A stretch of 64,000 nt of DNA from the IMG/VR virus record IMGVR_UViG_3300045988_092126. One strand, given 5' to 3'. Origin of the DNA: a virus. This document shows, one piece after another, positions 1 to 15,222 of the stretch. Each line of letters opens with the position of its first letter. The first letter of the stretch is position 1. The position numbers were made by a program, and so were the translations under genes. Under the pieces are notes generated by a model that had not been told where the DNA came from, searched no databases, and saw only the letters and a list, made by a program, of their open reading frames with translations.

Positions 1-2
1 CA

Positions 3-482
3 ACAATAGAAAGCGGAGAAACGAAACGAGAATACATCCAGACTCAATTTTATGACAAATATCTGGATGTAATTGCTTCGTATATGCTTATAGATACATA
101 TATCAAGCAATATGCCACTGATATAACAAAGCAAATTATTGATATAACATTCGAAAGGCTTTCTTCTGAAGATAAAAGCATTACTGATGATTATTACCTG
201 TCAAATGACCGGGCAATGTTTATTTCAGAGTGCGAAGCTAATTCGATGCTGAACTACAGACAGTATTCGAAAGCTGTGAAATCAGGAAAGACCAAAAAGA
301 AATGGATTGACGTAGGAGACAAAAGAGAACGAAAAACACACCTCGAAGTCGGAGGAACCACGCTTCCGATTGGCGAACCGTTCTCAGTTGGAGATAGCTT
401 GCTACAATTTCCAAAAGATACCTCATTAGGAGCTTCGGCAGACGAGATTGTGAATTGCCGGTGCTCAATTCAATACAGTTAA
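3..482 (+). CDS. head morphogenesis / minor head protein (SPP1 gp7 - Mu F family), C-terminal part; 5' end outside window
   Basis: Frame is open from the window edge to TAA 480-482. C-terminal DKRERKTHLEVGG...IVNCRCS signature of gp7/MuF proteins. Directly precedes scaffold and capsid genes. Confidence 0.7.
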   Translation, partial: TIESGETKREYIQTQFYDKYLDVIASYMLIDTYIKQYATDITKQIIDITFERLSSEDKSITDDYYLSNDRAMFISECEANSMLNYRQYSKAVKSGKTKKKWIDVGDKRERKTHLEVGGTTLPIGEPFSVGDSLLQFPKDTSLGASADEIVNCRCSIQYS

Positions 483-606
483 TTTAGAGACGAGTAAAAT
501 CGTCTCTTTTTTATTAAAAAAATATGCACCCCGATAGCGTAATCATGGGAGACACCTTGAGCTGAGCGAACAGCGTAAAAAAGCGTATTGGTGACAGGAG
601 ATTTCA

Positions 607-1233
607 ATGACAAGAGAAGATGTTAAAAGGATTTTTCCAGATGCAACCGATGACCAGATTACTTCTTTTCTGAATCAGTCAAATTCTGATGTGGCTAAAG
701 AGAAAGCAAAAGCCCAGAAAGCAAAAGAACAGGCTGATAAAGCAGAAGCACTGGAAAAAGAACTGGAAGAATTAAAAAAACAGAACATGACTGAAGCTGA
801 GAAAGCAGAACTGGAACGTCAGAAAGAAAAAGCTGCAAACGAAAAAAGAATTTCTGACCTTGAATCTGCACTTGCAACTTCCCAGAAAGAAGCTCTGACA
901 GGCAAAATTACTTCTATTTTTGCTAATGCAGGAATGAAAGGAGATGCCTATGCAGGAGCAATCAAAGCGTTTTCCAACATGAACGCAGAGGATGCTCTCA
1001 AAGAAGCCCAGACATTTGTCGATGGAATTTCCGTAGAAAATAAAAACGCTCTTGATACCGCAAAAGCAGCTTGGGAGAAAGAAGCACTTGAAAATACACC
1101 TAATCCCGGTGGCGGTAAATCTGGTGGAGAACCAGAAAAGAAAAGCGAAGCATCTGAATACGCAAAAGCGTACTCAGCAAAAATGTGTCCAGAAAATAAA
1201 CCGGCAGACGATAATGCCCCAGTAAATATTTAA
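607..1233 (+). CDS. capsid scaffolding protein
   Basis: 208 aa, E/K/A-rich predicted coiled coil (KEKAKAQKAKEQADKAEALEKELEELKK). AGGAG RBS. Sits between the MuF-like and capsid genes. Confidence 0.65.
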   Translation: MTREDVKRIFPDATDDQITSFLNQSNSDVAKEKAKAQKAKEQADKAEALEKELEELKKQNMTEAEKAELERQKEKAANEKRISDLESALATSQKEALTGKITSIFANAGMKGDAYAGAIKAFSNMNAEDALKEAQTFVDGISVENKNALDTAKAAWEKEALENTPNPGGGKSGGEPEKKSEASEYAKAYSAKMCPENKPADDNAPVNI

Positions 1234-1251
1234 GAAAAGGAGATTTAGATT

Positions 1252-1596
1252 ATGGCTTTTATGAAAACAGAGCAATACGAATCCACACCTAATATCCTCG
1301 AATCTGAGGTAGGACTGGTACTTAAAACCTATACAGCAGAACAGACAAATGCTGAAACCGTTGGAACTAAGAAGATTATCAAAGCAGGTTCTGTATATCC
1401 GACAAACGCAACTGGTGCTAAAGGCATCGTGTTTGAAGATGTTGATATGACAGACGATGCTAAGAGACCGATTTCCGTTATTGTTGCAGGACGTGTTCTT
1501 GAAAAAAGACTTCCGGTAACAGTAGAAACCACTGCAAAAACAGAGCTTGAAAAAGCAGGTATCGTTTTTGTGACTACTACAGACCCAGAATTTTAA
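1252..1596 (+). CDS. head decoration-like protein (assigned by size and synteny)
   Basis: 114-aa ORF with AAGGAG RBS immediately upstream of a gpE-type capsid gene, as for lambda gpD-type decoration proteins. No diagnostic motif seen. Confidence 0.4.
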   Translation: MAFMKTEQYESTPNILESEVGLVLKTYTAEQTNAETVGTKKIIKAGSVYPTNATGAKGIVFEDVDMTDDAKRPISVIVAGRVLEKRLPVTVETTAKTELEKAGIVFVTTTDPEF

Positions 1597-1609
1597 GGAG
1601 GTACAGCAG

Positions 1610-2647
1610 ATGCCATTTAATATTTTAGAATCAATCACACCGGAAGAAAGACTTAACTTTTCTCAGGATTTCAGCGTAAAAAGGCCGGGCATTCTTGACA
1701 CCATCTTCCCGGATGTCAAAACACAGTTTCTGAAAGCTGAATACTACAGACTTATGGCTGGACAGAGACTTCCAGAGGTAGCATTCGTTCATGCACTTGA
1801 TACTGAAGCAGAAATCGGAACAAGACCGGGCTTCGAAAAAGTCCTGACTGAAAAGCTCTTTATTAAGAGAAAAATCAATCAGTCTGAGAGATTACAGCAG
1901 GCAATTGAAAATGGTGTGCCGGATGATGAGAATTTAAAGAAATTTGTATTTGATGATGCAGCTAATCTGTTTGAAGGAGTTGTTGCTAGAGCAAATGTCA
2001 TGAAAGGCCAATTTCTTAGCACAGGTGTTGTAAAAATTAAAGAAAACAATGTGGATATGAGCATTGATTATGGCGTTCCGTCCGATGCAAAAGTAGAAAT
2101 GACAGACTGGTCTAAACCAGATGCAGATATCATGGGTGATATCCAGAAGATGGTCGCTATTGCAGAAGATAATGGATTTGTGGTAAACAAAGCCCTTACC
2201 TCTCTCAAAATGATTAACTATATGAGAAATAACACTGCAATGCAGACCGCAGTTTTAGGAGCAGCTAACAAACGTCTTCTGACCAAACAGGAACTCGCTA
2301 ATCTGCTTATGCAGGAATACGGAATCACAATTGATCGCTGCGACGAGAAATTCAAATTCAGAAAAGCGGATGGTTCTCTCAAAACAGGAAGATACTTCAA
2401 AGAAGATGTATTCACACTGTATGAAGCAGAGCCAAACGGTTCATTTGGTACTGGACTCTGGGGCGTAACACGAGAGGAACTTGAATACAGACAGTTTATA
2501 CAAGAAGAGAACCGTTCTTTCGTAACACTGTCTATGTGGGCCACTCCAGACCCTGTGGCAGTATGGACAAAAGCATCCGGTATGTTTGTTCCAGTAGCAG
2601 CAAAAGCTAATGGCGGTATCGTAATCGGTACCAAAGCGGGGGAATAA
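1610..2647 (+). CDS. major capsid protein (lambda gpE-like family)
   Basis: 345 aa with GGAGG RBS. Length and N-terminus (MPFNILESITPEERLNF...) fit the E-type capsid family. Position after scaffold/decoration genes. Confidence 0.8.
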   Translation: MPFNILESITPEERLNFSQDFSVKRPGILDTIFPDVKTQFLKAEYYRLMAGQRLPEVAFVHALDTEAEIGTRPGFEKVLTEKLFIKRKINQSERLQQAIENGVPDDENLKKFVFDDAANLFEGVVARANVMKGQFLSTGVVKIKENNVDMSIDYGVPSDAKVEMTDWSKPDADIMGDIQKMVAIAEDNGFVVNKALTSLKMINYMRNNTAMQTAVLGAANKRLLTKQELANLLMQEYGITIDRCDEKFKFRKADGSLKTGRYFKEDVFTLYEAEPNGSFGTGLWGVTREELEYRQFIQEENRSFVTLSMWATPDPVAVWTKASGMFVPVAAKANGGIVIGTKAGE

Positions 2648-2835
2648 ACGGGCATAGTCTCGACAAGAACAGCCAGTCACCATCTGTAGCAAGTGTTAAA
2701 CACAAGTATACAGAAAGCGAGCTGTCAAGCATGACAGTGGTTCAGTTGAAACAGCTCGCAAGTGACAATGGCTATGCCCTGACATCGACAAACAAGGCTG
2801 GTATTATCTCAGAAATTTTATCTCAGCAAGGGTAG
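2611..2835 (+). CDS. start-less ORF encoding a linker plus HeH/SAP-like motif; candidate -1 frameshift extension of the capsid protein (or a 34-aa peptide from ATG 2731)
   Basis: The -1 frame relative to the capsid gene is open for 74 codons from 2611 and overlaps the last 12 capsid codons. No ATG/GTG/TTG occurs before 2731. It ends ELSSMTVVQLKQLASDNGYALTSTNKAGIISEILSQQG. A G5 run at 2638-2642 sits just before the capsid stop. Confidence 0.4.
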   Translation, partial: WRYRNRYQSGGINGHSLDKNSQSPSVASVKHKYTESELSSMTVVQLKQLASDNGYALTSTNKAGIISEILSQQG

Positions 2836-2845
2836 GTGATCTTAA

Positions 2846-3172
2846 ATGGACGAACGGCTTGTAAATGATCTGAAAGAGTATCTATCCGATGATGCGGAAA
2901 CTGACGGTATGATTTCTTTGTCTGTGAAGCGTGCAATTCGTTCGTTCAAAAAGAAACGCAACTATCCGTCTGGATATACAGATGAAAAAATCAATACCGA
3001 TATGGAATACTGTTATGATTGCATATTTGATCTGGCTCTCTATTTCCTTGTGAAACAGGGGGCCGAGTTCCAAGAATCGCACTCTGAAAATTCAGTAAGT
3101 CGAAAATGGGAATCCGAAACGGAAATATATATCAATCATGGCGTTTTTCCGTTTGCAGGAAGTTTAATTTAA
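2846..3172 (+). CDS. head-tail connector protein (gp6-like)
   Basis: 108 aa. N-terminal LVNDLKEYL..DD.ETDGMI..SVKRAI pattern is typical of gp6-like connectors. Position after the capsid gene. Confidence 0.55.
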   Translation: MDERLVNDLKEYLSDDAETDGMISLSVKRAIRSFKKKRNYPSGYTDEKINTDMEYCYDCIFDLALYFLVKQGAEFQESHSENSVSRKWESETEIYINHGVFPFAGSLI

Positions 3173-3284
3173 TAAGATGGTTGGGTCACGTGGCACAGTA
3201 TTTTTGTCCTCCCGGAGTGCCGCTGGGTTGCTTATATTCAGTAGGGAAAAGCAAATGTTAAGGGAGTGAAGAAAGGAACTGGCG

Positions 3285-3596
3285 ATGGGATGTGAACATG
3301 AATGTTTTAATGAACACCGCATAGAAGAATTAGAGAATAGTCTTCGACAGATGCAAGAGAGACAATCCGACCGCCATAAAGAGTTTTATGAGCGTATCGG
3401 GGAACTGGAAAGAAAGACAGCATTAAGTGAGAATGACTTGAACCATATCAAGTCAACTGTGGATGAGATGAATAACAATATAAAGACTCTCATGGCAGTT
3501 CCAGGAAAGCGCTATGATACAATTATTGTATGTGTTATTACGGCAATTGTCGGCGCGGTTATCGGATTTATGTTAAACGGCATTCTTCCAGTTTGA
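3285..3596 (+). CDS. XhlA-like membrane protein
   Basis: 103 aa with an N-terminal heptad region (IEELENSLRQMQERQSDRHKEFYERIGELERK) and one C-terminal TM helix (TIIVCVITAIVGAVIGFMLNGIL). This is the architecture of PBSX XhlA. Confidence 0.5.
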   Translation: MGCEHECFNEHRIEELENSLRQMQERQSDRHKEFYERIGELERKTALSENDLNHIKSTVDEMNNNIKTLMAVPGKRYDTIIVCVITAIVGAVIGFMLNGILPV

Positions 3597-3625
3597 TTCC
3601 ACTTGTAAGGGAGGACGGTGGAAAT

Positions 3626-3880
3626 ATGAATTATACAGACTTTTCAGAAGATGAAAGAAAATTTTACTTAAAAGAAGCAGGATTCGATTCCAGAGAAGAA
3701 AAACTGTTTCGTTTACGGGTTTATGGCGAGAAAACACTATGGGAAGCAGCTGAACTTATGGGGTATAGTCCAAGAACCATAGACCGAATTAATAAAAGAA
3801 TAAAGAAGAAAATTTCTAAAGTTGCCCCGATGTACTGTCGGGGCTTTTCTTTGTATTGTGGCGAAAACGTGGCGAAATAG
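3626..3880 (+). CDS. sigma-70 region-4-like HTH regulator
   Basis: 84 aa from ATG 3626 (GGGAGGA RBS at 3609-3615). EEKLFRLRVYGEKTLWEAAELMGYSPRTIDRINKRIKKKI resembles a region 4.2 HTH. Confidence 0.5.
   Translation: MNYTDFSEDERKFYLKEAGFDSREEKLFRLRVYGEKTLWEAAELMGYSPRTIDRINKRIKKKISKVAPMYCRGFSLYCGENVAK
3824..3852 (+). terminator. intrinsic terminator
   Basis: GCCCCGA-tgtactg-TCGGGGC followed by TTTTCTTT. Lies inside the 3' end of the preceding ORF. Confidence 0.6.
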
Positions 3881-4035
3881 TGACGTTCAAAAACAGAGTT
3901 CCTTCCTATATAATATAATCATAGGAGAAAACACAATGATTATGTTAAGAAACCCTTACGAGGGTATATGGGAAAAGCATCGTTCTATAGATGATATGGA
4001 TATGATTCTTGAATCCCGGACAGGAGGAACAGATT

Positions 4036-4533
4036 ATGGCAGGTTATCCGTATTATCCGCAACAACCAATAATAAACAATCCATACGGACAGATACAGCC
4101 GTATCAGGACAGGCTGGCGCAATTGCAGAATAATTACCAACAGGCAATGCCTTATGGTCAAATACAGATGCAACAGTTACAGCCGGTTCCACAATCACCT
4201 ATGCTTCAAGGACAGATGGTGGATGGGATTGATACTGTAAAGGCTAAAGATGTGGATATGTCCGGCAATCCTGTTTACTATCCAAAAACAGACGGAACTG
4301 AAATTTACAGAAAACAGCTTCAATCCGATGGAAGGAGCAGAATTTTTGTTTACCGACTCGTAAATCCAGATGAACAGCAATCTAAGCAAGATGAAAAGCA
4401 GATTGATATTGAAGCAATGTTTAATCAGCTTCGGAATGATGTTTGTTCGGAGATTTCTGAAATAAAGAATATGTTTCCGACGCAGATGTCGGGGACATCG
4501 GAACCTAAGCAGAATGGAGGTAGGCAGAGATGA
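4036..4533 (+). CDS. Gln/Pro/Tyr-rich protein, unknown function
   Basis: Start chosen at ATG 4036 behind a GGAGGA RBS. N-terminus MAGYPYYPQQPIINNPYGQIQPYQDRLAQLQNNYQQAMPYGQIQMQQLQPVPQ, followed by an ordinary globular C-terminal half. Confidence 0.5.
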   Translation: MAGYPYYPQQPIINNPYGQIQPYQDRLAQLQNNYQQAMPYGQIQMQQLQPVPQSPMLQGQMVDGIDTVKAKDVDMSGNPVYYPKTDGTEIYRKQLQSDGRSRIFVYRLVNPDEQQSKQDEKQIDIEAMFNQLRNDVCSEISEIKNMFPTQMSGTSEPKQNGGRQR

Positions 4534-4775
4534 CATTCAATCCAAACGCCATGATGAAAAAGCAATTTGAGAAAATGATCTCTCAGAGGTTCGGAAGTGT
4601 TGACAACATGATGAACGATATGAGCAAATTTGCAGGTAACAATCCAACATTGAAAAATGCTTTGGATTTATATAAAAAAGGTGATACAGACCAGTTACAT
4701 CAAATACAGCAAAATGTATTTAATGAAAAGCACTTATCTCCAGATGGAATTATACAAAAATTCCTTGGATTATAA
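4530..4775 (+). CDS. hypothetical protein
   Basis: 81 aa with GGAGG RBS. ATGA start/stop overlap with the upstream gene. Confidence 0.45.
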   Translation: MTFNPNAMMKKQFEKMISQRFGSVDNMMNDMSKFAGNNPTLKNALDLYKKGDTDQLHQIQQNVFNEKHLSPDGIIQKFLGL

Positions 4776-4871
4776 CACTTCCCCACAATTGGGTGATTAA
4801 AAATCGCTACAATTCGGGACGACAGCCGCGGATGTCTCCTATTGTAAATAAAATTTAAGGAGACTAAAAAC

Positions 4872-5681
4872 ATGATGAATGGTTCAAATTATAGTCTTAG
4901 CGACATTGCTGCCGCTACAGGCTCTAATAATCGCGCCAATGATATGTGGGGCGGTGATGGCTTTTCACTTATCTGGCTCGTCCTGATCTTCGCAATCTTC
5001 GGCTGGGGAGGTTTTGGCGGCTGGGGCGGCGGCTTTGGCGGTAACGGTGGAAACGGTGCGAACGGTGCCGGTTTCCAAGGATGGGCTACCCGTTCAGATA
5101 TTAATGAGGAATTCGCCCTTAATGATATTCAGAATGGTATCAGAGGTATTCAGCAGGGTATCTGCGACAGCACGTATTCTCTTAACAATACCATGCAGAG
5201 TGGCTTTAATGGTATGAATGTCGGAATGCTTCAAGGCTTCAACGGCGTTCAGCAGGCAATCAATGCTGATACTGTAGCCGGTATGCAGAATACCAACGCA
5301 TTACAGTCTCAGTTAGCAAACTGTTGCTGTGAAACAAGAGAAGCTATACAGGGTATCAACTACAACCTTGCTACCAACACTTGTGCTCTCCAGAACACAA
5401 TGAACAACAACACCAGAGATCTTCTGGAAAACCAGAACAGCAACACAAGAGCAATCCTTGACTTCCTGACTAACGATAAGATTGCAACATTACAGGCAGA
5501 AAATACTGATCTGAAACGTGCTGCGTCTCAGGATCGTCAGTCTGCACTGCTTACAACTGCTATGGCTTCACAGACTCAGCAGTTAATCAATGCAATTAAT
5601 CCGGCGGCTATTCCGGCATATGTTGTTCCGAATCCGAATACCTATTACGGTGGATGCGGATGTAACAGCGGATGCTGCTAA
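4872..5681 (+). CDS. membrane-anchored Gly-, Asn/Gln- and Cys-rich protein, unknown function
   Basis: 269 aa with AAGGAG RBS. One TM helix flanked by Gly runs (GGDGFSLIWLVLIFAIFGWGGFGGWGGGFGGNGGNGANG), a long N/Q-rich helical region with CCC and C motifs, and a C-terminus YYGGCGCNSGCC. Confidence 0.6.
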   Translation: MMNGSNYSLSDIAAATGSNNRANDMWGGDGFSLIWLVLIFAIFGWGGFGGWGGGFGGNGGNGANGAGFQGWATRSDINEEFALNDIQNGIRGIQQGICDSTYSLNNTMQSGFNGMNVGMLQGFNGVQQAINADTVAGMQNTNALQSQLANCCCETREAIQGINYNLATNTCALQNTMNNNTRDLLENQNSNTRAILDFLTNDKIATLQAENTDLKRAASQDRQSALLTTAMASQTQQLINAINPAAIPAYVVPNPNTYYGGCGCNSGCC

Positions 5682-5711
5682 GTAACTCACCCTTAGAGGT
5701 TGACTAATTCT

Positions 5712-5743
5712 AAGAGGTGGGTTGCGGCTCACCTCTTATTTTG
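5712..5743 (+). terminator. intrinsic terminator
   Basis: AAGAGGTG-ggttgcggct-CACCTCTT followed by ATTTT. Confidence 0.6.
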
Positions 5744-5759
5744 ATTGAGAGGTAAAGAT

Positions 5760-6185
5760 ATGAGTTGTAAAAATGTTTGTAAGCTCTGCAACCATCTTGT
5801 AATCAGCCAAGCCGTTGCGTTTACAGGAGGCAATCTTGTAATCACACTTCCGGCAGGCAGTTACAACAATGGAGAGAAATATTGTATTGTTGTTGCGCAA
5901 AGCATACCGGAAGCCACTACAATTACTGCTCCGGTAATGATTCAGATAGGAACAGGAACAACTTTGTATCCGCTAGAGAATCGTTGCTGCGCACAGGTTA
6001 CGGCTTGCGGAATAAGAACCAGAACAAAGTACGCAACCAGAGTAGCTACAAGTGCAACCGGCGGAGTATTCAAGATGTTAGGAAATCCGGCTTGTAGTCC
6101 AAGTAACAATTTAACAGCAATTGATGGTACAGCCCCAACGACAGACACACCTGTTACACAGGCTGCCAGAAAGGGGGCAATGTAA
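5760..6185 (+). CDS. Cys-rich small protein, unknown function
   Basis: 141 aa from ATG 5760 (GAGAGG RBS). MSCKNVCKLCNH..., internal CC and four further Cys residues, and a Thr/Ala-rich, beta-like composition. Confidence 0.5.
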   Translation: MSCKNVCKLCNHLVISQAVAFTGGNLVITLPAGSYNNGEKYCIVVAQSIPEATTITAPVMIQIGTGTTLYPLENRCCAQVTACGIRTRTKYATRVATSATGGVFKMLGNPACSPSNNLTAIDGTAPTTDTPVTQAARKGAM

Positions 6186-6811
6186 TGCATAAAGTTGCAA
6201 TGGAAATGGGAAAATGGGCTATGGAAAAAGCCAAAGCACATGGATTTGACAATCTTAGTTCTCAGGACTGGGATGATCTGAAAGATTGCTTAGAAGCGGT
6301 AAAATGCGCAATCTGTGCAGATAAAGATTACAGAATCGTAGAAGCTATGGACGAATGTGAACAGGAAGAGAAGTATCTTGGACGCATGGGATATGACAAC
6401 TATCGTTACGCAAACGGCAGATTTGCACCAAAAGGCAGAGGAAGCCGAATGGGATATATGCCGTATCTCCATATGCAGGATGACGACTGGGTAAGTGAAT
6501 ATCCGAGCAATCCAGAGTTTGAACGTAATATGTACCGCATGGGCTATCATCCAGACCGTAGTGATATGAGAATGGACGGTATGAACAATAGGCAATCCAG
6601 ATATGGTGAAACCTACGACAGATACAGCGAGAATCGCAGACATTACCATGATTCCAAAGATGCTGAATCTAAGAGAAAAATGGACGATTCCATGAAAGAG
6701 TATACAGAAGATATCATCCGCAATATGAAAGAAATGTGGGATGATGCAGACGCATCAATCAGACAGCAGATGAAAACTGACTTAACACGTTTCATACAGC
6801 AGATGAATTGA
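6185..6811 (+). CDS. hypothetical protein with RMGY repeats
   Basis: 208 aa with TAATG overlap with the upstream gene. Has four (G)RMGY motifs, an Arg/Tyr/Asp/His-rich centre and a Cys cluster (CLEAVKCAIC) near the N-terminus. Confidence 0.5.
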   Translation: MHKVAMEMGKWAMEKAKAHGFDNLSSQDWDDLKDCLEAVKCAICADKDYRIVEAMDECEQEEKYLGRMGYDNYRYANGRFAPKGRGSRMGYMPYLHMQDDDWVSEYPSNPEFERNMYRMGYHPDRSDMRMDGMNNRQSRYGETYDRYSENRRHYHDSKDAESKRKMDDSMKEYTEDIIRNMKEMWDDADASIRQQMKTDLTRFIQQMN

Positions 6812-6827
6812 ATATGAAATGAATTTT

Positions 6828-6860
6828 GCCCTTGTTACAGGAATGTAGCAGGGGCTTTTT
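6828..6860 (+). terminator. intrinsic terminator
   Basis: GCCCTTG...CAGGGGC stem (one G-U pair) followed by TTTTT. Confidence 0.5.
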
Positions 6861-6886
6861 AGTTGAGAAAAGGATGGTGATAAGCC

Positions 6887-7273
6887 ATGCTAAGACAATT
6901 TTACATGAACGGCGACCTATGGAGGGTGCAGTTTGTATCTCCGCATGACAGCGTGTTAATTGACCGTACAGGCAATAGAACACTTGGAGTATCGGATTAT
7001 TCCACACATATTATTTCAATCGCAAATAACCTGTATGGAGAACTTCTGAACCGTGTATTTATTCATGAGCTAGGGCATTGCGTGATGTTCAGTTATGGTC
7101 TATTGCCAGAACTTCATCGTATGGTCAAGAAACGGTATTGGGTGGATGCAGAGGAATTTGTATGCAATATTCTGGCAGACTATGGACAGTTTGTTATTGG
7201 CACAGCCAGAGATATTTTAGGAAACCAGTTCACATATGTAGCTCCCATTGGGGCAGAAAGGATGATTGCATAG
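6887..7273 (+). CDS. putative zinc metallopeptidase (HExxH)
   Basis: 128 aa with FIHELGHCV (HExxH) at the centre. Size and layout resemble small SprT/ImmA-type phage peptidases. Confidence 0.5.
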   Translation: MLRQFYMNGDLWRVQFVSPHDSVLIDRTGNRTLGVSDYSTHIISIANNLYGELLNRVFIHELGHCVMFSYGLLPELHRMVKKRYWVDAEEFVCNILADYGQFVIGTARDILGNQFTYVAPIGAERMIA

Positions 7274-7516
7274 ATGGCAAAAGCAGAAAACACAATTATT
7301 TTTGATGGCATTCAGTACAATCCCGGTGATGAATTGCCGGATTTAGGCAGTTGGGTATGTACAGATGCAAGAGGTATGGTTCGTGATTACGAGGGACTTT
7401 CAAAAGACGTGTCAAAGCTCCCGCATTATGTACAGAGTGGTTCTTCGGCGTTGTGCCTTGATACTTCTGAATTATACGAATATCACAAACCTACTGATAC
7501 ATGGTACAAACTGTAA
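7274..7516 (+). CDS. hypothetical protein
   Basis: 80 aa. The ATG abuts the upstream stop. GAAAGGA RBS. Confidence 0.4.
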   Translation: MAKAENTIIFDGIQYNPGDELPDLGSWVCTDARGMVRDYEGLSKDVSKLPHYVQSGSSALCLDTSELYEYHKPTDTWYKL

Positions 7517-7529
7517 AGGAGAAGCGCAT

Positions 7530-9773
7530 ATGGCATTAACAGCAAAGAAAGTATATGCAATATTAAAACGCCAGATTTCCGATATGGAAGCAAAATTAAA
7601 TAGCCCTGTAAGATACAGAGGTACAGTTGCGACTGCTGATTTGCTTCCATTAAATCCAGACATTGGCGATATGTACAATATCGAGTCTAAATCTATTTAC
7701 GGCGAAGCAGGAATGAATGTGGCATGGAACGGCGTAGTATGGGACACTATGGGCGCCCCGATTGATATGTCACTTTACATTAAATCAAACGAATTAGCGG
7801 ATTGGGTAAAACAGCAGAACAAGCCGACATATACAGCTGAAGAAGTTGGAGCGTTGCCGGCTGATACAAAGATTCCAAGCAAAACCAGTGAATTGCAGAA
7901 TGACTCTGGATTCTTGACTAAAATTCCAGACAATTATCTTTTCGAAACAGACAAAACACTGAACGTATCTGGAAAAGCTGCTGACGCAAAGGCTACCGGA
8001 GATAAAATCACAGAATTGTCAGCTGATATATCAAATAAATTGAATAAGAACCAAGGTTCGGAAAACTCTGGCAAGATTGCCGGAATTAACGAATCTGGCG
8101 ATATCGTTCCGATGTTTCCAGTAAGCGTAGATTACAACGAAGAAACAAACTGCCTTGAGTTTGGGTCTGATCAAAAAATGGAGCTTAATAAAGGTATCAA
8201 CCTTGATAGCACTCTCACGAAGACTGGATATGCCGCTGATGCAGGCGCAGTTGGAGAAATAACTAATTCACTAAAGGAAGATTTGTATGTTAAAACTTAC
8301 AACATTTTTGATGTTAATTTTTTACCTCGAGCATTCATTCCTCTCACAGGCTCTCACGGCGGTGAACTGTTTCTTGATAATAATGATAATTATTCGGCAA
8401 CAAATGAAACTATTAATGTTCTTCCGAATACTCAATACACCTTTTCAAATGGTAGTGAATCTATCCCTTATGAGTTACAGTTAAGTGTTATTTTTTATGA
8501 CAAAGATATGAGGTTCTTAGGTTATGCAAGTAACACCATTAATAATTTTTCAAAATTTTTTAAATTTACAACTATTGAAAACACTAATCATCTAAGATTT
8601 CAACTTCGTTCCACAGGAAAAGGCTCGGATATTCCTAATATAAAAAAATGGCAGTTAAACGAGGGTAATCTATTACCTTATTTGGATAATTATGTGTTAA
8701 ATTGTTCAACGGATAATATTGGAAATGAATTAACCGATATAAACATTGATAATCCACAGGTCAGAGATTTTGTTGAAGATGTTGATTACACAAATCAAGA
8801 ATACACAATAACACAAGTTGGTACATATTCTGCACCATCTGTTTATTATAGAAAAGATTGTGGTTTTCCAATGGTTGTTAAATGGAAATTAAATAGAGAT
8901 ATAAAAAATCAAATATTATATATTTCTACAAACAAATTAATTCCTATTGCTGATACAGTTGCTGTGAAATCATATGATATTCCTTGTGGAATAAGTGATT
9001 TTGCTGTATATAATTTAATCCCAAATGCAACATATTACTATAAAGTTTGTGGTACTGATTTTGACAACAATTTAATTGTAATTAAAGAAGGGTGTTTTAC
9101 CACTATTGGACAAGTGCATATGTTAAAAATTGACGGATTAAAAAATGTTCGTGATTTAGGTGGTTGGCTTACGCCAAATGGTAAAATTAAATACGGATTA
9201 TTATTTAGAGGTTGCGAACTTGATGATACCGGAGTCGGTGTGGAATTAACACATGAAGGTAAAAAAGAACTTTTTGATAGAATAAGAATAAAAACTGACA
9301 TTGATTTAAGAACGGATGTTGGTAATACAAAATCGCCTATCGGTACTCTTGTTGATTATAATTGTTATCCTATTCAACCATATGATACAGGTTTGAAAGA
9401 CACTATAACAAAAGGATTAATAAAATCTATTTTTGAAAAAATTGAAGAAAAGTTATCAAAAAGTAATGCGATATATTTCCATTGCCAAGGTGGTAGAGAT
9501 AGAACTGGAACACTTGCTTTTTTGATTCTAGGTGTTTTAGGTGTGAGCGAATCCGATATAGCAAAAGATTATGAACTTACAGAATTTGCGTATGCAAGTT
9601 ATAAGGCTGATAATCCGAATACGTCTAGGAAGTTTGCTCAATATGTATCTATGGTAAGTTATATTAAAACTTTCAATGGGGCAACATTTAATGATAAGAT
9701 TATTAGTTATCTTTTGAGCATCGGAATTAGTCAAGCCACTATTAACAATATTAAGTCGTATATGGTTGCTTAA
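7530..9773 (+). CDS. fiber-like structural protein fused to a C-terminal protein-tyrosine-phosphatase (CX5R, Y_phosphatase3-like) domain
   Basis: Start at ATG 7530 (AAGGAG RBS). The N-terminus YRGTVATADLLP..GDMYN and the SGKAADAKATGDK / TGYAADAGAVGE motifs are typical of prophage fibers. The C-terminus has NVRDLGGW (about 9143) and the P-loop HCQGGRDRTG (9480-9509). Confidence 0.7.
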   Translation: MALTAKKVYAILKRQISDMEAKLNSPVRYRGTVATADLLPLNPDIGDMYNIESKSIYGEAGMNVAWNGVVWDTMGAPIDMSLYIKSNELADWVKQQNKPTYTAEEVGALPADTKIPSKTSELQNDSGFLTKIPDNYLFETDKTLNVSGKAADAKATGDKITELSADISNKLNKNQGSENSGKIAGINESGDIVPMFPVSVDYNEETNCLEFGSDQKMELNKGINLDSTLTKTGYAADAGAVGEITNSLKEDLYVKTYNIFDVNFLPRAFIPLTGSHGGELFLDNNDNYSATNETINVLPNTQYTFSNGSESIPYELQLSVIFYDKDMRFLGYASNTINNFSKFFKFTTIENTNHLRFQLRSTGKGSDIPNIKKWQLNEGNLLPYLDNYVLNCSTDNIGNELTDINIDNPQVRDFVEDVDYTNQEYTITQVGTYSAPSVYYRKDCGFPMVVKWKLNRDIKNQILYISTNKLIPIADTVAVKSYDIPCGISDFAVYNLIPNATYYYKVCGTDFDNNLIVIKEGCFTTIGQVHMLKIDGLKNVRDLGGWLTPNGKIKYGLLFRGCELDDTGVGVELTHEGKKELFDRIRIKTDIDLRTDVGNTKSPIGTLVDYNCYPIQPYDTGLKDTITKGLIKSIFEKIEEKLSKSNAIYFHCQGGRDRTGTLAFLILGVLGVSESDIAKDYELTEFAYASYKADNPNTSRKFAQYVSMVSYIKTFNGATFNDKIISYLLSIGISQATINNIKSYMVA

Positions 9774-9868
9774 CTAAAGAGGGCTTTAGTTAACTATTAA
9801 AACCACAGGCACAGCGCATTTAATCATTATAAACAGTTGACAATAAATAACAGATATGGAGGAATCAC

Positions 9869-11071
9869 ATGAAAACGCAGAAAACAAAAGGATTTTATGA
9901 CCGTGAAAATGATACGGTACATATTTTTATTCCGCCTGCTCCGACAGAATCGGAGAGAGGTGGAATTACTGCAAAAGAAAAAACAACGGAATCCCTCGAA
10001 GTTACTATTGATTCAGCTACGGGGAAAGCATATGTAGCACTCGACAAAACACTTTCAAAGACAGGCGAGGCGGCGGATGCAGCAGTTGTAGGCGAAAAAC
10101 TCACATCAATGGGTGTCGCAATTGAAAATGTAAAGGAAGATAAAGCCGATAAAACATCTCTTGCACAAACCGACAGAAAGCTTGATGCACTCTGGAAACT
10201 CAATCAGGGTATCAGCTATGAATTTCAGACAGATGAAGCAGAAGCATATCAGAAAACGGTTCCGAGTGGTGCAAAGATGGTAAGCATTAAAAGTATTGGC
10301 GGTAAGACGATTGTCTGGAATCAGTTAAATTTGAATAACGAAAATTCTGTTACGAAAAACGGTATTTCTTTTATAAACAATAAGGACGGTTCGTGGACAA
10401 TAACTGGAACTTGTAGTACATCTAATGGCGGCAGTGCTGACGTACTAATATACGGATTTGCAGTTAAATATGTATCAGGTCATAAATATTTAGTTAAAGC
10501 CGATAAATATTCTGATGGAAATTATGGTTTTGCAATTAACGGCAGGTCTTACCCACTAAAAAAAGCAATAATTATTAATTACGCTTTTAATCCAGTAATA
10601 TTTGTAAACGACAAGGCAACCGTGGATAACGTTACGATGCGAATGAATATTTTCGACCTCACCCAAATGTTCGGCGCAGGTAACGAACCATCCACCCCAG
10701 AGGAATTCGAAGCTATGTTTCCAGCAGACTATTATCCGTACAATGCAGGCGAGTTGATGAGCGCACCTGTGAATGAAGTTGTATATTTAGATACCAAAAA
10801 TCAAGAAACATCATATCCAATCCCACAAGCCATTCTTGACCTAGAGGGTTATGGAGAGAGTGGGAATTTTGTTGATTTTGTGGAAAAGAAATACCACAAA
10901 GGGGACAGGACGATTGATATATCAGACATTATGGGAGATACATTCCAACAACCTCTTGAAGTTGAAGTAGGCGGTACACTGACGTTCAAAAACAGCAACG
11001 GTAATGATTACAGAATCCCTGTACCAAGCTCAGAGGAATATGTAATATCTTTAGCGGAGGTAGCAAAATGA
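9869..11071 (+). CDS. fiber / receptor-binding-like protein
   Basis: 400 aa with GGAGGA RBS. Shares the LSKTGEAADAAVVGEK fiber motif with the preceding gene. AT-rich central part. Confidence 0.55.
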   Translation: MKTQKTKGFYDRENDTVHIFIPPAPTESERGGITAKEKTTESLEVTIDSATGKAYVALDKTLSKTGEAADAAVVGEKLTSMGVAIENVKEDKADKTSLAQTDRKLDALWKLNQGISYEFQTDEAEAYQKTVPSGAKMVSIKSIGGKTIVWNQLNLNNENSVTKNGISFINNKDGSWTITGTCSTSNGGSADVLIYGFAVKYVSGHKYLVKADKYSDGNYGFAINGRSYPLKKAIIINYAFNPVIFVNDKATVDNVTMRMNIFDLTQMFGAGNEPSTPEEFEAMFPADYYPYNAGELMSAPVNEVVYLDTKNQETSYPIPQAILDLEGYGESGNFVDFVEKKYHKGDRTIDISDIMGDTFQQPLEVEVGGTLTFKNSNGNDYRIPVPSSEEYVISLAEVAK

Positions 11072-11220
11072 CTGAAATGCAGAAGAAAATGATAGAGAAA
11101 CTTGGTCTGGCTGAATCAGACTTTGAGAAAAAAGAAACGGTGGTAAGCAATGAAGAACGTATCAATGACCTTGAGATTGCTGTCTGCGAACTGCTTGAAA
11201 CACTTGGGAATGCTGAATAA
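11068..11220 (+). CDS. small protein downstream of fiber genes (XkdW/X-position)
   Basis: 50-aa ORF (MTEMQKKMIEKLGLAESDFEKKE...) with ATGA overlap with the fiber gene. Below the ORF-track length cutoff. Confidence 0.35.
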   Translation: MTEMQKKMIEKLGLAESDFEKKETVVSNEERINDLEIAVCELLETLGNAE

Positions 11221-11236
11221 GAAAAGGAGAAATAAA

Positions 11237-11413
11237 ATGATGGCAAAAGTATATTTTAACAGATTGATCGTAGGAACTATTACATATGATGCAATTCCTG
11301 AGAAATATCAGGATAAAGTAAGAGAATATGGTATTGAGTATGTGAAAAAAGGAAAACTTCCTGTAGAAGAATATGAAATGCTGTATAAAGAGGAATATCC
11401 AGAGGGTAAGTAA
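11237..11413 (+). CDS. XkdX-like small phage protein
   Basis: 58 aa from ATG 11237 (AAGGAGA RBS). ...YVKKGKLPVEEYEMLYKEEYPE matches the V.KGKIT.EEY..ITG pattern of the XkdX family. Confidence 0.5.
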   Translation: MMAKVYFNRLIVGTITYDAIPEKYQDKVREYGIEYVKKGKLPVEEYEMLYKEEYPEGK

Positions 11414-11554
11414 TTAACACCAGTTTAAAAAATTGAACAAACAGGAGAAAATCAAAATGGAATTTAATATCAAGACCAGGCTTGCTCATGCTTGGAGGGC
11501 GTTAATTATTGACTATTGGACACCAATAATATATAATGATTATAAATTCATTAT

Positions 11555-11746
11555 ATGGAGGTGAGTTCGATAAAAGTAGAAAGAAATATCATGATTAACA
11601 AAGCTGGTGGAAACGCAGGAAAAGAATCTGTCAACTATAAAATATCACTTCCGTCAGAAGCAGTTCGGATGATAGGTGTTACCAAAGAAGACAGAAAAGT
11701 AATTCTCGAATATGATGAAGAGAAAATAACAATCAAAAAAGCATAA
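11555..11746 (+). CDS. AbrB/SpoVT-like (MazE-fold) DNA-binding protein
   Basis: 63 aa. ISLPSEAVRMIGVTKEDRKVILEYDEEKITIKK fits a swapped-hairpin AbrB-type domain. Start uncertain (11555 or 11591). Confidence 0.45.
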   Translation: MEVSSIKVERNIMINKAGGNAGKESVNYKISLPSEAVRMIGVTKEDRKVILEYDEEKITIKKA

Positions 11747-11867
11747 TAAAAAGGAGTTAGGTTCCCGACTACCAATCAAAAAAAACCTAACTCCAACACC
11801 ACAAAGGGTACAGTATTATTATAACATGGTACTCTCCCTTTGTGAACCCAAAAGGAGGGTATTTTTT

Positions 11868-12863
11868 ATGAGAGATAAATTCGTGAATGGGTTCATGACA
11901 AAACTGTATGGAGAAATTCCGGAAGAGTATCTGGAAACGATCAGAAACAAACTGGCGTTGTATGTAAATGATTTTGATATCAGTCAAAGAGAAACAGCAG
12001 TTGTAAAGTATACTGGATATTTGCCGGATTTTTACAAAACTTACATTGTAAGTAGAAAAATCGAGGGTTTGAGTAAAAAGACGCTCGAACTCTACAATCT
12101 TTATCTGAATGATTTCTTTTTCACATTCAATAAAAAAGCTGAAGATATTACCTCAAATGACATTCGTGTATATCTGTATAATGCTCAGGAAAGCAGAAGT
12201 CTAAGTAATCGAACACTTGATAGCCGCAGAACTGCCATTCATGCATTTTTCGAATGGGCTGCAAACGAGGGATATGTGGGCAAAAACCCATGCAGATCAA
12301 TCAAAAATATCAAATATGAGCGTATAGAAAAACAACCTCTGACAGATATGGAACTGGAAAGAATCAGGCAAGCTTGCGAAACCGTACGTGAAAAAGCACT
12401 GGTTGAATTTCTGTATAGTACCGGAGCCAGGGTTACAGAAGTGTGTGGTGTAAAGAAAACAGATATAGACATTTACAAAGGTGAAGTAGTTGTTTTGGGG
12501 AAAGGCAACAAGCATAGAACAACATACCTAAACGCTCGTTGTAAATTACTTTTAAAACAATACTTTGCAATTAGAGATGATGAATCGGAATATCTTTTTG
12601 TAAGTGAAAGGAAACCACATAAGGTACTCAAAAAAGAAGCAATTGAAAGAATTGTACGAATAATCGGTGAACGGGCAGAACTGGACAGACCTCTAACACC
12701 GCATCTATTTAGGCATACTCTTGCGACTCTTATGCTTCAAAGAGGTACGCCGATTACTGAGGTGCAGAAGATTCTTGGACATGTCAACATTAACACGACA
12801 ATGATCTATGCAAAGGTATCTGATGAAGATGTAAAAGTGTCTCATATGAAATATGCAATATAA
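11868..12863 (+). CDS. tyrosine recombinase, XerC/XerD-like
   Basis: 331 aa from ATG 11868 (AGGAGGG RBS). SAM-like N-domain, ARVTEV (Arg I), HLFRHT (H-x-x-R) and GHVNINTTMIYAKV (His plus catalytic Tyr). Confidence 0.85.
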   Translation: MRDKFVNGFMTKLYGEIPEEYLETIRNKLALYVNDFDISQRETAVVKYTGYLPDFYKTYIVSRKIEGLSKKTLELYNLYLNDFFFTFNKKAEDITSNDIRVYLYNAQESRSLSNRTLDSRRTAIHAFFEWAANEGYVGKNPCRSIKNIKYERIEKQPLTDMELERIRQACETVREKALVEFLYSTGARVTEVCGVKKTDIDIYKGEVVVLGKGNKHRTTYLNARCKLLLKQYFAIRDDESEYLFVSERKPHKVLKKEAIERIVRIIGERAELDRPLTPHLFRHTLATLMLQRGTPITEVQKILGHVNINTTMIYAKVSDEDVKVSHMKYAI

Positions 12864-12886
12864 GATTTTTGAAGGGAGAAATCGCT

Positions 12887-13285
12887 ATGAGAGGATTGAA
12901 ACGCCAAAAACAGGCAGTGTATTGGTCAAGGGTAACTGAAGACCTTGACGGGATAGACACAATCAAAACGTACCAAAAGCCAGAATTACATCACCTCTCC
13001 GTATCTGCGACTGCCGGAACGCCAGAGGAATTATCCGCCGGGTACGTCCCTGATTACGATAGGTACATCACGAATTTTGACCGTAGCTTCAAACCGCAAA
13101 TTGCAGATGTGTTCTGGATAGACTGCAAACCGGAATTGAACGAATCTGGAGAACTTATCTTAGGCGAAGGCGGGGAGCCTACAGTTCCGCCAGATTACCG
13201 TCTGAAAAAGATTCTCGATACCCAGAAAGGCAATGTGGCACGATACGGTATTAAGTACACAGGAGATGGCTCAGATGGCGAATAA
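12887..13285 (+). CDS. head-closure / head-tail adaptor-like protein (by position)
   Basis: 132 aa with GAAGGGAG RBS. First gene of the resumed head-tail joining series. No diagnostic motif. Confidence 0.35.
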   Translation: MRGLKRQKQAVYWSRVTEDLDGIDTIKTYQKPELHHLSVSATAGTPEELSAGYVPDYDRYITNFDRSFKPQIADVFWIDCKPELNESGELILGEGGEPTVPPDYRLKKILDTQKGNVARYGIKYTGDGSDGE

Positions 13286-13793
13286 GACTATCAAAATGGA
13301 ACTGTCGCATAAATCTATACAGGACACAATAAAACAGCTCAGGCAGTACCAAAACAGCCTTAAAAGTAAGAATGAATTATTTGTTCGTCGACTGTCTGAA
13401 CTTGGAATCCCTGTCATTGATCAGAATATTTCACTGTCGCAGGGCGATTCCGATAAAAATCACAGCACCTACATCAAAATCAATTCGTTCGGCGATTACT
13501 CACAAGCAACTTTAGTATGTGAGGGCGCAGGTCTGTTGTTCATAGAGTTTGGTGCCGGAATCCATTACAATACCCCGGCAGGCTCAAGCCCGCACCCGAA
13601 AGGGCAGGAACTTGGATATACAATCGGTTCTTACGGTCATGGTAAAGGAAAAAACGATTCTTGGACATACACGTCTGAAACTGGCGAATGGGTAAGATCA
13701 TATGGTACCGAAGCCACTATGCCGGTTTATAAAGCAAGCATGGAAATCATACAGAACATTCGGAAAATCGCAAAAGAGATATTTTCTACTTAA
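13275..13793 (+). CDS. HK97 gp10-like tail-component protein (tentative)
   Basis: 172 aa from ATG 13275 (AGGAG RBS 9 nt upstream). Overlaps the upstream gene. Size and position fit gp10-family neck proteins. Confidence 0.4.
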   Translation: MANKTIKMELSHKSIQDTIKQLRQYQNSLKSKNELFVRRLSELGIPVIDQNISLSQGDSDKNHSTYIKINSFGDYSQATLVCEGAGLLFIEFGAGIHYNTPAGSSPHPKGQELGYTIGSYGHGKGKNDSWTYTSETGEWVRSYGTEATMPVYKASMEIIQNIRKIAKEIFST

Positions 13794-13843
13794 ACTTCAT
13801 ACTGAAACATACTATTCAAAATGGTATACTATAACATATAAAA

Positions 13844-13871
13844 GCATCTGCAAACAAGCAGGTGCTTTTTT
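13844..13871 (+). terminator. intrinsic terminator
   Basis: GCATCTGC-aaacaa-GCAGGTGC followed by TTTTTT. Confidence 0.6.
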
Positions 13872-13903
13872 CATGCAAAAACATAGAAAAGGAGAATGTA
13901 AGC

Positions 13904-14542
13904 ATGTTAGTAGAAACAATGATTATCAGAAAAGTAGAAACGAGCATTGTCACAAGCCTAGATGTCGCGGAGACTTTTGGAAAAGAACATAAAAGAGTAT
14001 TGCAGGACATTAGAGAATTAGGATGCAGTGAAGAATTCGGACAGCACAATTTCGTGCCTTCCTCATATACAAGTATTCAGAATAAAAAGCAACCTATGTA
14101 CTGTATGACAAGAGATGGGTTCACACTTCTTGTTATGGGATACACTGGCGAAAAAGCCATGAAATTCAAAGAAGGATATATCCGCCAGTTCAATGCAATG
14201 GAAAAAGTTCTTTTAGGGAAAATAAGAGAACGAGACAAAGGCATTGCAGTGAGACAGGCGTTGACCAATGCACTTAAAGAATCTCAAGAAAATGAGAGAA
14301 TACATGGTCATGCGTATTCGACATATACAGATATGGTATATCGTACATTGTTTGGCAAAACTGCAAAACAACTTAGAGAAGAAAAGGGAATCTCTACCAA
14401 GGACAATCTGAGAGATTTCCTCACTGAAGAAGAATTAAAAGCAGTTCAATCAAAAGAAATGCTTGTTAGCGGATTGATTGACTGTGGATGGGGATATTCT
14501 CAAATAAGAGATTTCCTAAAGGACAGTCTCAAAATATGTTAG
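13904..14542 (+). CDS. Rha-family phage regulatory protein
   Basis: 212 aa from ATG 13904 (AAGGAGA RBS). VTSLDVAETFGKEHKRVLQDIREL... is the characteristic Rha N-terminal domain. Confidence 0.8.
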   Translation: MLVETMIIRKVETSIVTSLDVAETFGKEHKRVLQDIRELGCSEEFGQHNFVPSSYTSIQNKKQPMYCMTRDGFTLLVMGYTGEKAMKFKEGYIRQFNAMEKVLLGKIRERDKGIAVRQALTNALKESQENERIHGHAYSTYTDMVYRTLFGKTAKQLREEKGISTKDNLRDFLTEEELKAVQSKEMLVSGLIDCGWGYSQIRDFLKDSLKIC

Positions 14543-14560
14543 AACAGGCGAGGTGATTCT

Positions 14561-14968: not shown

Positions 14969-15009
14969 CAGCTTCTATTTTTTATACCAAAAAGAAAGGA
15001 GAGTGTCCT

Positions 15010-15222
15010 ATGAGTAAAGATAAATTACAATGGCTGAAAGCTGCGGGAATCAGAGCTGTTAAGACAATTGCTCAGACAGCAGTTGCAACAATCGGAACCG
15101 CGACAGTCCTTGGAAGCGTTGACTGGAAGATGGTCGTATCCGCGTCCGTTCTTTCCGGCGTTTTATCCTTGCTTACATCTGTAGCAGGGCTTCCAGAACT
15201 GAAAACAAGCGCAGATGAATAG
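15010..15222 (+). CDS. holin, r1t / LL-H-like family
   Basis: 70 aa. IRAVKTIAQTAVATIG....VDW......LSGVLSLLTSVAGLPE matches the r1t-type holin pattern (AIKTFAQ...VDW...LTS.A.G.P). Two hydrophobic helices. Confidence 0.65.
   Translation: MSKDKLQWLKAAGIRAVKTIAQTAVATIGTATVLGSVDWKMVVSASVLSGVLSLLTSVAGLPELKTSADE

Follow-up and report, generated by a model that had tools for sequence, protein, structure and literature searches.

The viral DNA analysed here, a stretch of 64,000 nt referred to below as the window (IMG/VR record IMGVR_UViG_3300045988_092126), carries on its plus strand a core of five tightly packed open reading frames (ORFs), g1 to g5 (Table 1), with overlaps of 4 nt between g1 and g2 and of 1 nt between g4 and g5. 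The initial annotation had described five consecutive same-strand genes of extreme composition, and both points are borne out by the ORF call; the five are a real unit but not the whole of it, as the cassette spans 3285-7273 and also includes genes for a coiled-coil protein, a putative regulator and a metallopeptidase-like protein (g6). The exact proteins of the window were found on between 144 and at least 1,000 contigs, that of g2 on at least 1000. As all five have thousands of homologues, and their order is kept in divergent loci, the core is not a chance set of ORFs. It was likewise correct that no described phage function could be recognised: the PHROG families matching g1 to g5 all carry the label 'unknown function', scans of all module proteins against Pfam, NCBIfam and PADLOC returned only noise and no function, and full-text literature searches, which covered the PHROG numbers, DUF7841, phage-encoded BclA and lysis by crAss-like phages, turned up no account of the module.

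The hallmark protein is g3, the only one of the five with a transmembrane (TM) segment. Residues 27-70 are 43% Gly and surround a hydrophobic core, FSLIWLVLIFAIFGW, with a best 19-residue Kyte-Doolittle mean of 1.99, giving a single TM helix flanked by Gly, Trp and Phe. The rod that follows (residues 71-245) is 26% Asn plus Gln and contains a CCC motif; over about 165 residues its hydrophobic positions recur with a period of 3.65, corresponding to some 15 repeats of 11 residues (hendecads), and the protein ends in a Cys/Gly-type tail, YYGGCGCNSGCC. More than 7,900 homologues were found in a first search (2,519 clusters at 50% identity), and the family corresponds to phrog_16490 (E = 8e-66). 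Of 222 homologues, 215 keep the CCC and 200 a C-terminal Cys cluster of the form CxC..CC, whilst an N-terminal SL.DIAA.TG peptide is invariant among close relatives (alignment A3). Because the flank before the helix is acidic and poorer in Lys and Arg (K+R 0.69, D+E 2.9) than the flank after it (K+R 1.0, D+E 1.6), an orientation with the N terminus outside and the C terminus inside is suggested, the signal being weak. The phi29 protein p16.7, a membrane organiser of phage DNA replication, also has an N-terminal TM helix and a cytoplasm-facing coiled coil; the likeness is one of layout, and g3 differs in having no DNA-binding domain, in being Cys-rich and in its partners. The Gly-embedded helix had originally been compared to the YjcZ-type peptides, tiny sporulation proteins of Firmicutes membranes with a few dozen residues, which also have a short hydrophobic helix in Gly-rich runs. 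However, g3 is approximately ten times longer, with a rod and a Cys tail, and there was no NCBIfam match either to the whole protein (E up to 1) or to N-terminal segments from four phages (E up to 10), in a test where the composition filters of HMMER may hide very weak matches.

The partners of g3 are compositionally just as distinctive. Gln, Pro and Tyr make up 53% of residues 1-62 of g1, which matches phrog_21718 (E = 1.8e-20); a profile from its family alignment (A5) found no relative among PDB sequences, against which the g3 and g4 family profiles also gave nothing significant. Met accounts for 9% of g2, a protein that we take from its sequence to be helical and whose slot is filled in other phages by a second sequence type, phrog_22984. 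Both termini of g5 likewise read as helical, and residues 63-165 between them include 15 Arg, 13 Tyr, 10 Asp and 9 Met; the Arg/Tyr/Asp-rich character first reported for this segment is real, whereas the four RMGY motifs proved to be three exact copies (at residues 67, 88 and 118) and one RMDGM. The window g5 matches phrog_28802 weakly (E = 0.029) and its Dulem virus 35 counterpart does so at E = 2.4e-56; shorter Arg/Tyr-rich variants are found in some other loci. A scan of each of g1, g2, g4 and g5 found no signal peptide and no hydrophobic stretch or N terminus.

The fourth protein, g4, begins with MSCKNVCKLCNH and is 5.7% Cys, against a mean of 1.56% for plus-strand ORFs of at least 100 aa in the window; it has 5,855 homologues. 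Structure prediction was applied to this protein only. A first model, from 23 close homologues, had a predicted local distance difference test score (pLDDT) of 46.5; a second AlphaFold2 model, from 41 more diverse sequences, reached a mean pLDDT of 74.5 and a predicted TM-score of 0.68, with a predicted eight-strand beta-sandwich preceded by a disordered CX3CX2C peptide. Foldseek found no significant fold match to this model in the PDB (best E = 0.19). In BFVD the top matches were small uncharacterised phage proteins, among them a 114-aa protein of cr271_1, in which the gene directly 3' of g3 has equal length; next came the C-terminal parts of tail-fibre, receptor-binding protein (RBP), collagen-repeat and hyaluronidase fibre proteins, aligned over about 100 columns at E = 1e-5 to 1e-3 with TMq of 0.4-0.5. 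As modelled, g4 resembles the distal domains of phage fibres. The structure and homology searches proposed in the initial annotation have provided a fold and fibre-tip-like matches, but no function from the PDB or Pfam, the latter having no match to g4 at E up to 1, BclA_C included. Membership of the Ena (DUF3992) family was considered for g4 and rejected, there being no Pfam match and no 7A02-type match among the top Foldseek results.

To place these genes in a wider context, 117 related loci were fetched (Dulem virus 35, Butyrivibrio phage Ceridwen, g3-encoding contigs, 80 viral contigs and 29 species-representative genomes; given below by our L numbers), and iterated local hidden Markov models (HMMs) from the window proteins were applied to their plus-strand ORFs. 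The gene order g1-g2-g3-(slot 4)-g5 held across 24 divergent representatives (pairwise g3 identity below 75%): 23 have a slot-4 protein after g3 and 22 have g1 before it, the missing cases being at contig ends. The HMMs detected g2 in 14 loci, g5 in 14 (downstream of slot 4) and g6 in 11, with divergent variants in the same places elsewhere. Slot 4 is occupied either by the g4 family or by a BclA_C-like family of about 140 aa (b4), never by both, and hhalign found no homology between the two (probability 0.3%). The b4 protein of Dulem virus 35 matches Pfam BclA_C (PF18573) at 30.3 bits (E = 4.4e-7), below the gathering score of 38 bits; two further b4 proteins had no match to this model. Frequent extra members are a sigma-r4/LuxR-type helix-turn-helix (HTH) protein, a TM-plus-coiled-coil protein of about 100 aa, and either a small HExxH protein or a Cys-peptidase-like protein of about 130 aa.

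The position of this block varies. In phages of the window type it lies between head-tail connector and tail genes; in Dulem virus 35 and L078-L088, between a MuF-like minor capsid gene and the scaffold and major capsid genes; in L003-5, L077, L091 and L094, beside an integrase and att site or at a prophage end adjoining host genes; and in Ceridwen, L100, L103 and L114, directly after holin/endolysin genes. As the same block sits at different places in unrelated phage backbones, its five to seven genes form a self-contained accessory cassette that moves horizontally. A Pfam scan of 104 upstream neighbours of the 24 representatives found Sigma70_r4 and GerE HTH domains most commonly, along with capsid, MuF, integrase and host housekeeping genes; the lysis-type matches were Amidase_2, PG_binding, Glucosaminidase and holin.

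Some further features recur in subsets of these loci. The protein of about 130 aa (L002 7665-8042; L078 4372-4752; L105 3757-4140; L107 5171-5572; L114 5722-6135) has a GDC(A/T)VRA motif and a C-terminal H...D..WDS, and looks like a papain-like Cys peptidase without a Pfam match; it marks one module subtype that lacks any detected g6. The possibility that the g3 N terminus contains a double-glycine bacteriocin leader, to be cut by this neighbour, was considered and set aside, since the spacing of conserved residues did not fit by eye and the neighbour has no Pfam match. A conserved ORF of about 55 aa, MFS(D/E)E(I/V)LEKI...IHAI(E/Q)EVL, precedes g1 in one subtype (L004 9109-9270, with equivalents in L077, L090, L092, L093, L094 and L116) and may be a further member. 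In L004, L077, L078, L090, L093 and L116, with variants in L001 and L094, the first module gene is preceded by a hairpin and T-run and then by TATGC(A/C)AAAAT, 20-30 nt before the ribosome-binding site and conserved across unrelated phage backbones; this could be a terminator and extended -10 promoter, or an antitermination site. Finally, an apparently decayed chromosomal copy lies on a 120-kb contig of an Oscillospiraceae metagenome-assembled genome (L112 6287-8477), about 3.4 kb from a XerC-like recombinase gene: its g3 lacks the N terminus, the slot-4 gene is frame-shifted, and a short g5-like gene alone remains.

Most named bacterial carriers belong to the Lachnospiraceae (Lachnospira, Blautia, Faecalimonas) and Oscillospiraceae, with a few bins labelled Bacteroidaceae, Muribaculaceae or Phocaeicola. 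All carrier hosts and sources found were gut or rumen, and these hosts are strict anaerobes. Butyrivibrio phage Ceridwen has g1, g2, g3, a short g5 and a BclA_C-like protein; it lacks an integrase, and only a lytic cycle has been seen (PMC7372960). A weak tblastn match led to the crAss-like phage cr109_1, whose gp64 has all the g3 hallmarks, namely a Gly/Trp-flanked TM helix, CCC and a Cys tail. A search from gp64 retrieved g3 from 18 'uncultured phage cr*' records, representing 15 distinct crAss-like phages, four of which were opened and fell into three Crassvirales families; it also found the cultured Bacteroides phage C3_41T2LP and two viruses whose record host is Methanomassiliicoccales. 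All seven g3 sequences tested matched the Firmicutes-derived g3 HMM (E = 1e-15 to 9e-36), and the archaeal-virus gene is labelled phrog_16490 by its depositors too. Hence the host range takes in non-sporulating bacteria and, by record annotation, archaea. No phage of Bacillus, Clostridium or Clostridioides was among the matches in 50,697 phage records, nor was a homologue found in Bacillus or Clostridium sensu stricto in the scan of species-representative genomes.

Two of these relatives have peculiarities of their own. One archaeal-virus g3 (vir335, L120 4650-5573) contains CCC twice and lacks the C-terminal Cys tail, and the genes after it, one encoding 541 aa with a C-terminal TM helix, are unrelated to the module. 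In cr109_1 (L118), annotated genes including the g3 homologue contain in-frame stops, consistent with stop-codon reassignment in its crAss-like lineage; these were replaced by Gln in searches.

In cr109_1, cr52_1 and cr1_1, g3 is preceded by a holin (or hypothetical protein), a LysB-like protein and a DUF7841 protein with an Arg/Tyr/Asp-rich tail, and followed by a beta-rich protein of about 140 aa and one of about 188 aa with a beta domain and coiled coil. In cr116_1 and cr272_1 it lies a few kb from a holin and L,D-carboxypeptidase, or from an endolysin, and in C3_41T2LP a gene annotated 'PolyVal metallopeptidase' is found five genes 3' of the g3-like gene. DUF7841 (Pfam PF25223) is present in g3 partners of cr109_1, cr1_1, cr272_1 and C3_41T2LP (E = 1.7e-43 to 5e-16) and, fused to an Arg/Met/Tyr-rich segment, in the g5 slot of the Oscillospiraceae locus L100 (E = 2.2e-27). 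It was found neither in a six-frame search of the window nor in the Pfam scan of its proteins, and the window g5 shares with it only an Arg/Tyr-rich low-complexity character.

In the window, the coiled-coil protein, often encoded just 5' of the module, matches phrog_937 (E = 1.3e-12) and phrog_1193 (E = 9.5e-9), both labelled 'hemolysin', which we take to mean XhlA-type; the Pfam XhlA model did not match it, and a local HMM places its family in 76 of 118 loci and in five of the 24 representatives. The putative regulator matches Pfam Sigma70_r4 (E = 3.5e-4) and NCBIfam TIGR02937 (E = 5e-8), both under the curated cut-offs, and an HTH gene stands 5' of g1 in 11 representatives. The sequence from the first terminator-like hairpin to the promoter match (3824-3914) is near-identical in the relative L006. 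As there is no room for a promoter after the hairpin between g3 and g4, the last two core genes would be expressed by read-through. The product of g6 matches phrog_1233 (E = 2.3e-10) and phrog_13742, labelled 'peptidase' (E = 2.4e-4). Positions 1-16000 of the plus strand read as a phage structural region, in which the cassette follows the capsid genes, and the long tape-measure protein identifies the phage as a siphovirus.

Table 1. Features of the cassette and its surroundings in the window.
Feature	Coordinates	Strand	Description
g1	4036-4533	+	165 aa; Gln/Pro/Tyr-rich head, beta-rich segment of ~55 residues, amphipathic helix, basic tail
g2	4530-4775	+	81 aa; Met/Asn/Gln/Lys-rich; without TM or signal peptide
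g3	4872-5681	+	269 aa; acidic N-terminal peptide, TM helix, CCC rod, Pro-rich linker, Cys/Gly tail
g4	5760-6185	+	141 aa; Cys-rich eight-strand beta-sandwich (model), flexible N-terminal CX3CX2C peptide
g5	6185-6811	+	208 aa; Arg/Tyr/Asp/Met/Gly-rich low-complexity middle, three RMGY
g6	6887-7273	+	128 aa; HExxH (FIHELGHC) metallopeptidase-like
Coiled-coil protein	3285-3596	+	103 aa; C-terminal TM anchor
Sigma-70 region-4/LuxR-type HTH	3623-3880	+	85 aa; putative cassette regulator
Terminator-like hairpin	3824-3844	+	Upstream of g1; consensus scan
Sigma-70-like promoter match	3886-3914	+	TTCAAA-17-TATAAT, ahead of g1; consensus match only
12-bp hairpin and T-run	5711-5738	+	In the g3-g4 gap, 22 nt 5' of the g4 start codon; consensus match
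12-bp hairpin and T-run	6828-6855	+	After g5, directly before the g6 ribosome-binding site; consensus match
MuF-like minor head protein	84-482	+
Putative scaffold	607-1233	+
Head decoration-like gene	1252-1596	+
Phage_cap_E-type major capsid protein	1610-2647	+
Protein directly 3' of module	7530-9773	+	747 aa; longest ORF starts at 7365
XerC-like tyrosine recombinase	11826-12863	+
Rha/antirepressor-type regulator	13862-14542	+
Tape-measure protein	16779-21755	+	1,658 aa
Small ORF	21764-22189	
Probable distal tail or host-recognition protein	22198-27264	+	1,688 aa

The cassette is exchanged among viruses of strictly anaerobic gut microbes. The reading of its role that we prefer, tentatively and at rather less than even confidence, is a membrane-anchored, thiol-linked fibrous assembly acting at a late or lysis stage of infection. 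The single Gly/Trp/Phe-flanked helix would anchor g3 in the cytoplasmic membrane, with the acidic N terminus most likely outside and the hendecad rod and Cys/Gly tail most likely in the cytoplasm, where the signal-less g1, g2, g4 and g5 would likewise be found. Together these proteins may assemble into a fibrous scaffold on the membrane, the cysteines of which could form metal-thiolate clusters in the reducing cell, or disulfides once oxidised. Working late or at lysis, such a scaffold could set where or when the membrane is breached, or organise egress. We infer the topology, the protein contacts, the thiol chemistry and the timing of expression, as well as the lysis-stage role itself; the frequent adjacency to lysis genes is directly visible, with holin or amidase genes just 5' of the module in the Firmicutes loci L100, L103, L114 and Ceridwen, and the tail-anchored protein of the 'hemolysin' families upstream of it in the window. 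The presence of the module in Crassvirales and in Ceridwen, seen only as a lytic phage, argues for a role in the lytic cycle.

Several observations weigh against such a role. The adjacency is frequent rather than universal, clear lysis genes lying upstream in only about five of the 24 Firmicutes representatives, and the slot after a lysis cassette or at a prophage end is a classical one for unrelated morons. Expression apart from the late genes would be in keeping with the cassette having a promoter-like site, hairpins and a regulator to itself, and in C3_41T2LP the cassette is found among recombination genes. The topology signal is weak, and the opposite orientation would put the rod outside, beyond the reach of the partners. 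As hhalign found no homology of g1, g2, g4/b4 or g5 to the crAss-like partners or DUF7841, the case for corresponding partners across phyla is built on order, size, composition and a single structural match. Nor would a function in lysis account for a fibre-tip-like domain alongside three low-complexity proteins.

The closest lysis proteins in design are the i-spanins, such as lambda Rz and P2 LysB, which share with g3 an N-terminal anchor, a long helical rod with conserved Cys and, in crAss-like and several Firmicutes loci but not in all, holin/endolysin neighbours; the crAss-like g3 moreover lies two genes after a protein annotated as LysB-like. However, archaeal viruses and phages of Clostridia, which have a single membrane, also encode g3, and the Lachnospiraceae and Oscillospiraceae that host most carriers are presumably single-membrane bacteria. 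No outer-membrane lipoprotein partner was seen, overlapping frames not having been scanned for a lipobox. The rod is much longer, hendecad-based and Asn/Gln-rich, g3 comes with four or five further partners, its topology is probably the reverse, and no sequence similarity was found. Because the window proteins show no defining feature of YjcZ, CotZ/ExsY, BclA_C or PADLOC systems and share with spanins the anchor-and-rod design but no lipoprotein partner, and because no paper on the families was found, we place the cassette outside the known kinds of system, though it may turn out to be a lysis accessory or exclusion system in elaborate form; its likeness to i-spanins, to BclA/Ena-type appendages and to fibre tips is architectural.

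An unlikely, but still credible, alternative is that the cassette is a moron conferring superinfection exclusion or immunity: transcribed from its own promoter, also in lysogens, it would alter the membrane and so block incoming viral DNA. Its positions at prophage ends, beside an integrase and att site or after a lysin are moron-like, the sigma-70-like promoter match, flanking hairpins and HTH regulator would allow autonomous expression, and both mobility across backbones and a wide host range would suit a host-independent membrane anchor. However, protection of lysogens would be impossible in Ceridwen and in the Crassvirales, for which we know of no lysogeny. PADLOC-DB 2.0 had no family match, the best hits (E = 0.002-0.016) falling on coiled-coil or TM parts of CorA-like, ZorA and PD-T4-6 proteins. 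The exclusion proteins known to us are, besides, single small proteins and not structural-looking sets of five or six, which counts against this explanation.

The resemblance of the g4 model to the C-terminal domains of tail fibres and RBPs raises a further alternative, which we regard as distinctly unlikely, in which the set is borne on the virion: g3 would be a fibre or ejection protein, its hydrophobic segment inserting like a fusion peptide, with g4 as the distal knob and the Met-rich g2 (9% Met) shielding the hydrophobic segment before assembly. In two lineages the cassette does lie within blocks of head or structural genes, g3 is named 'viral fiber' or 'spike protein/glycoprotein' in crAss-like records (depositor labels, not experiments), and the partners all lack signal peptides, as virion proteins do. 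Unlike a fibre tip, though, g4 is free-standing and stalkless, its TM-scores are moderate, no solved structure matches it and its neighbours are not tail genes. A common attachment site on the virions of siphoviruses, crAss-like phages and archaeal viruses is improbable, and the spread of the cassette within phage lineages is patchy; it also brings a regulator of its own, and some phages carry it in early or lysogeny regions. Literature searches turned up no virion proteome of a carrier phage, the Ceridwen paper (PMC7372960) being confined to genome analysis and C3_41T2LP yielding no paper.

We give little weight to a third proposal, that the Cys-, Tyr-, Gln-, Gly- and Met-rich proteins are released at lysis and cross-link on meeting oxygen into a matrix round virions or membrane debris, or, as a variant within the same slim estimate, that the Cys and Met clusters form a redox switch coupling lysis to oxygen exposure. 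The composition is like that of cross-linked biomaterials, the partners lack secretion signals, carriers come throughout from the gut or rumen, where their hosts are strict anaerobes, the Cys motifs (CCC, the C-terminal CxC..CC and CX3CX2C of g4) are near-invariant, and lysis genes adjoin the cassette. This argument is one of composition and ecology only, however; Pfam, NCBIfam and PDB searches found no homology to a matrix, coat or redox-sensor protein, and a released matrix would have no need of the g3 membrane anchor. A bolder form, in our view a long shot, is that this cross-phylum cassette makes a membrane-anchored, spore-coat-like Cys/Met/Tyr material whose thiols, kept reduced or metal-bound within the anaerobic cell, cross-link on oxygen or at lysis, serving as a matrix for progeny or an oxygen-sensing lysis switch; if true, a protective matrix round progeny would be a bacterial analogue of viral occlusion bodies.

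The initial annotation rightly saw a coherent, uncharacterised Gly-TM/Cys-rich cluster; it favoured lysogenic conversion, with products added to the coat or exosporium when a lysogen sporulates. It also raised a virion appendage and an exclusion system, both weighed above. In support, the composition recalls coat proteins, signal-less proteins would suit deposition by the mother cell, some carriers are Clostridia prophages, L107 is flanked by a gene that reads as SpoIID-like (no search confirmed this), and the slot-4 protein of other phages is BclA_C-like, if under the Pfam cut-off. BclA of the exosporium nap and the Ena appendages also combine a stalk with a small many-Cys beta-sandwich knob, and the flexible Cys-bearing N-terminal peptide of g4 recalls the Ena subunit design; the module, unlike these, has no collagen repeats. 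The link drawn from Cys-rich proteins to spore layers found no backing in the window, where no protein matched BclA_C and g3, g4 and g5 had no Pfam or NCBIfam match to the CotY/CotZ/ExsY model (Spore_coat_CotZ) at E up to 1. The distribution of the g3 family is not tied to spore-formers: B. fibrisolvens, the Bacteroides and crAss-like hosts and the Methanomassiliicoccales do not sporulate, which leaves a spore-specific role unsupported. Largely refuted by this host range, the spore proposal retains only the barest probability.

The cassette spans siphoviruses of Clostridia, crAss-like phages of Bacteroidota and tailed viruses recorded on methanogens, a range across which, to our knowledge, few accessory modules move. 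If a role in lysis or egress is correct, the holin-endolysin-spanin scheme would gain a component of a new class, in the poorly understood lysis of gut anaerobes and by crAss-like phages; if an exclusion system or cross-linking matrix is correct, it would be a new kind of phage-encoded material. Two cultured carriers exist, Ceridwen on Butyrivibrio fibrisolvens DSM 3071 and C3_41T2LP on Bacteroides uniformis.

Further features of the window lie downstream of the cassette. The 747-aa protein directly 3' of it, read from its sequence as fibre-like, has a sole PHROG match in its N-terminal part (phrog_25468, unknown function; E = 6.5e-6) and a Y_phosphatase3 tyrosine-phosphatase domain at its C-terminal end (Pfam E = 2.7e-27), an unusual ending for such a phage protein. 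Between the head and tail genes, the structural operon contains the XerC-like recombinase (Phage_integrase, E = 1.2e-39) and the Rha/antirepressor-type regulator (phrog_2657, E = 1.4e-67); this stretch is absent from the close relatives L006-L008, suggesting a cargo island beside the module. Beyond the tape-measure gene, and separated from it by a small ORF, the 1,688-aa protein has weak PHROG matches of unknown function and is probably the distal tail or host-recognition protein.

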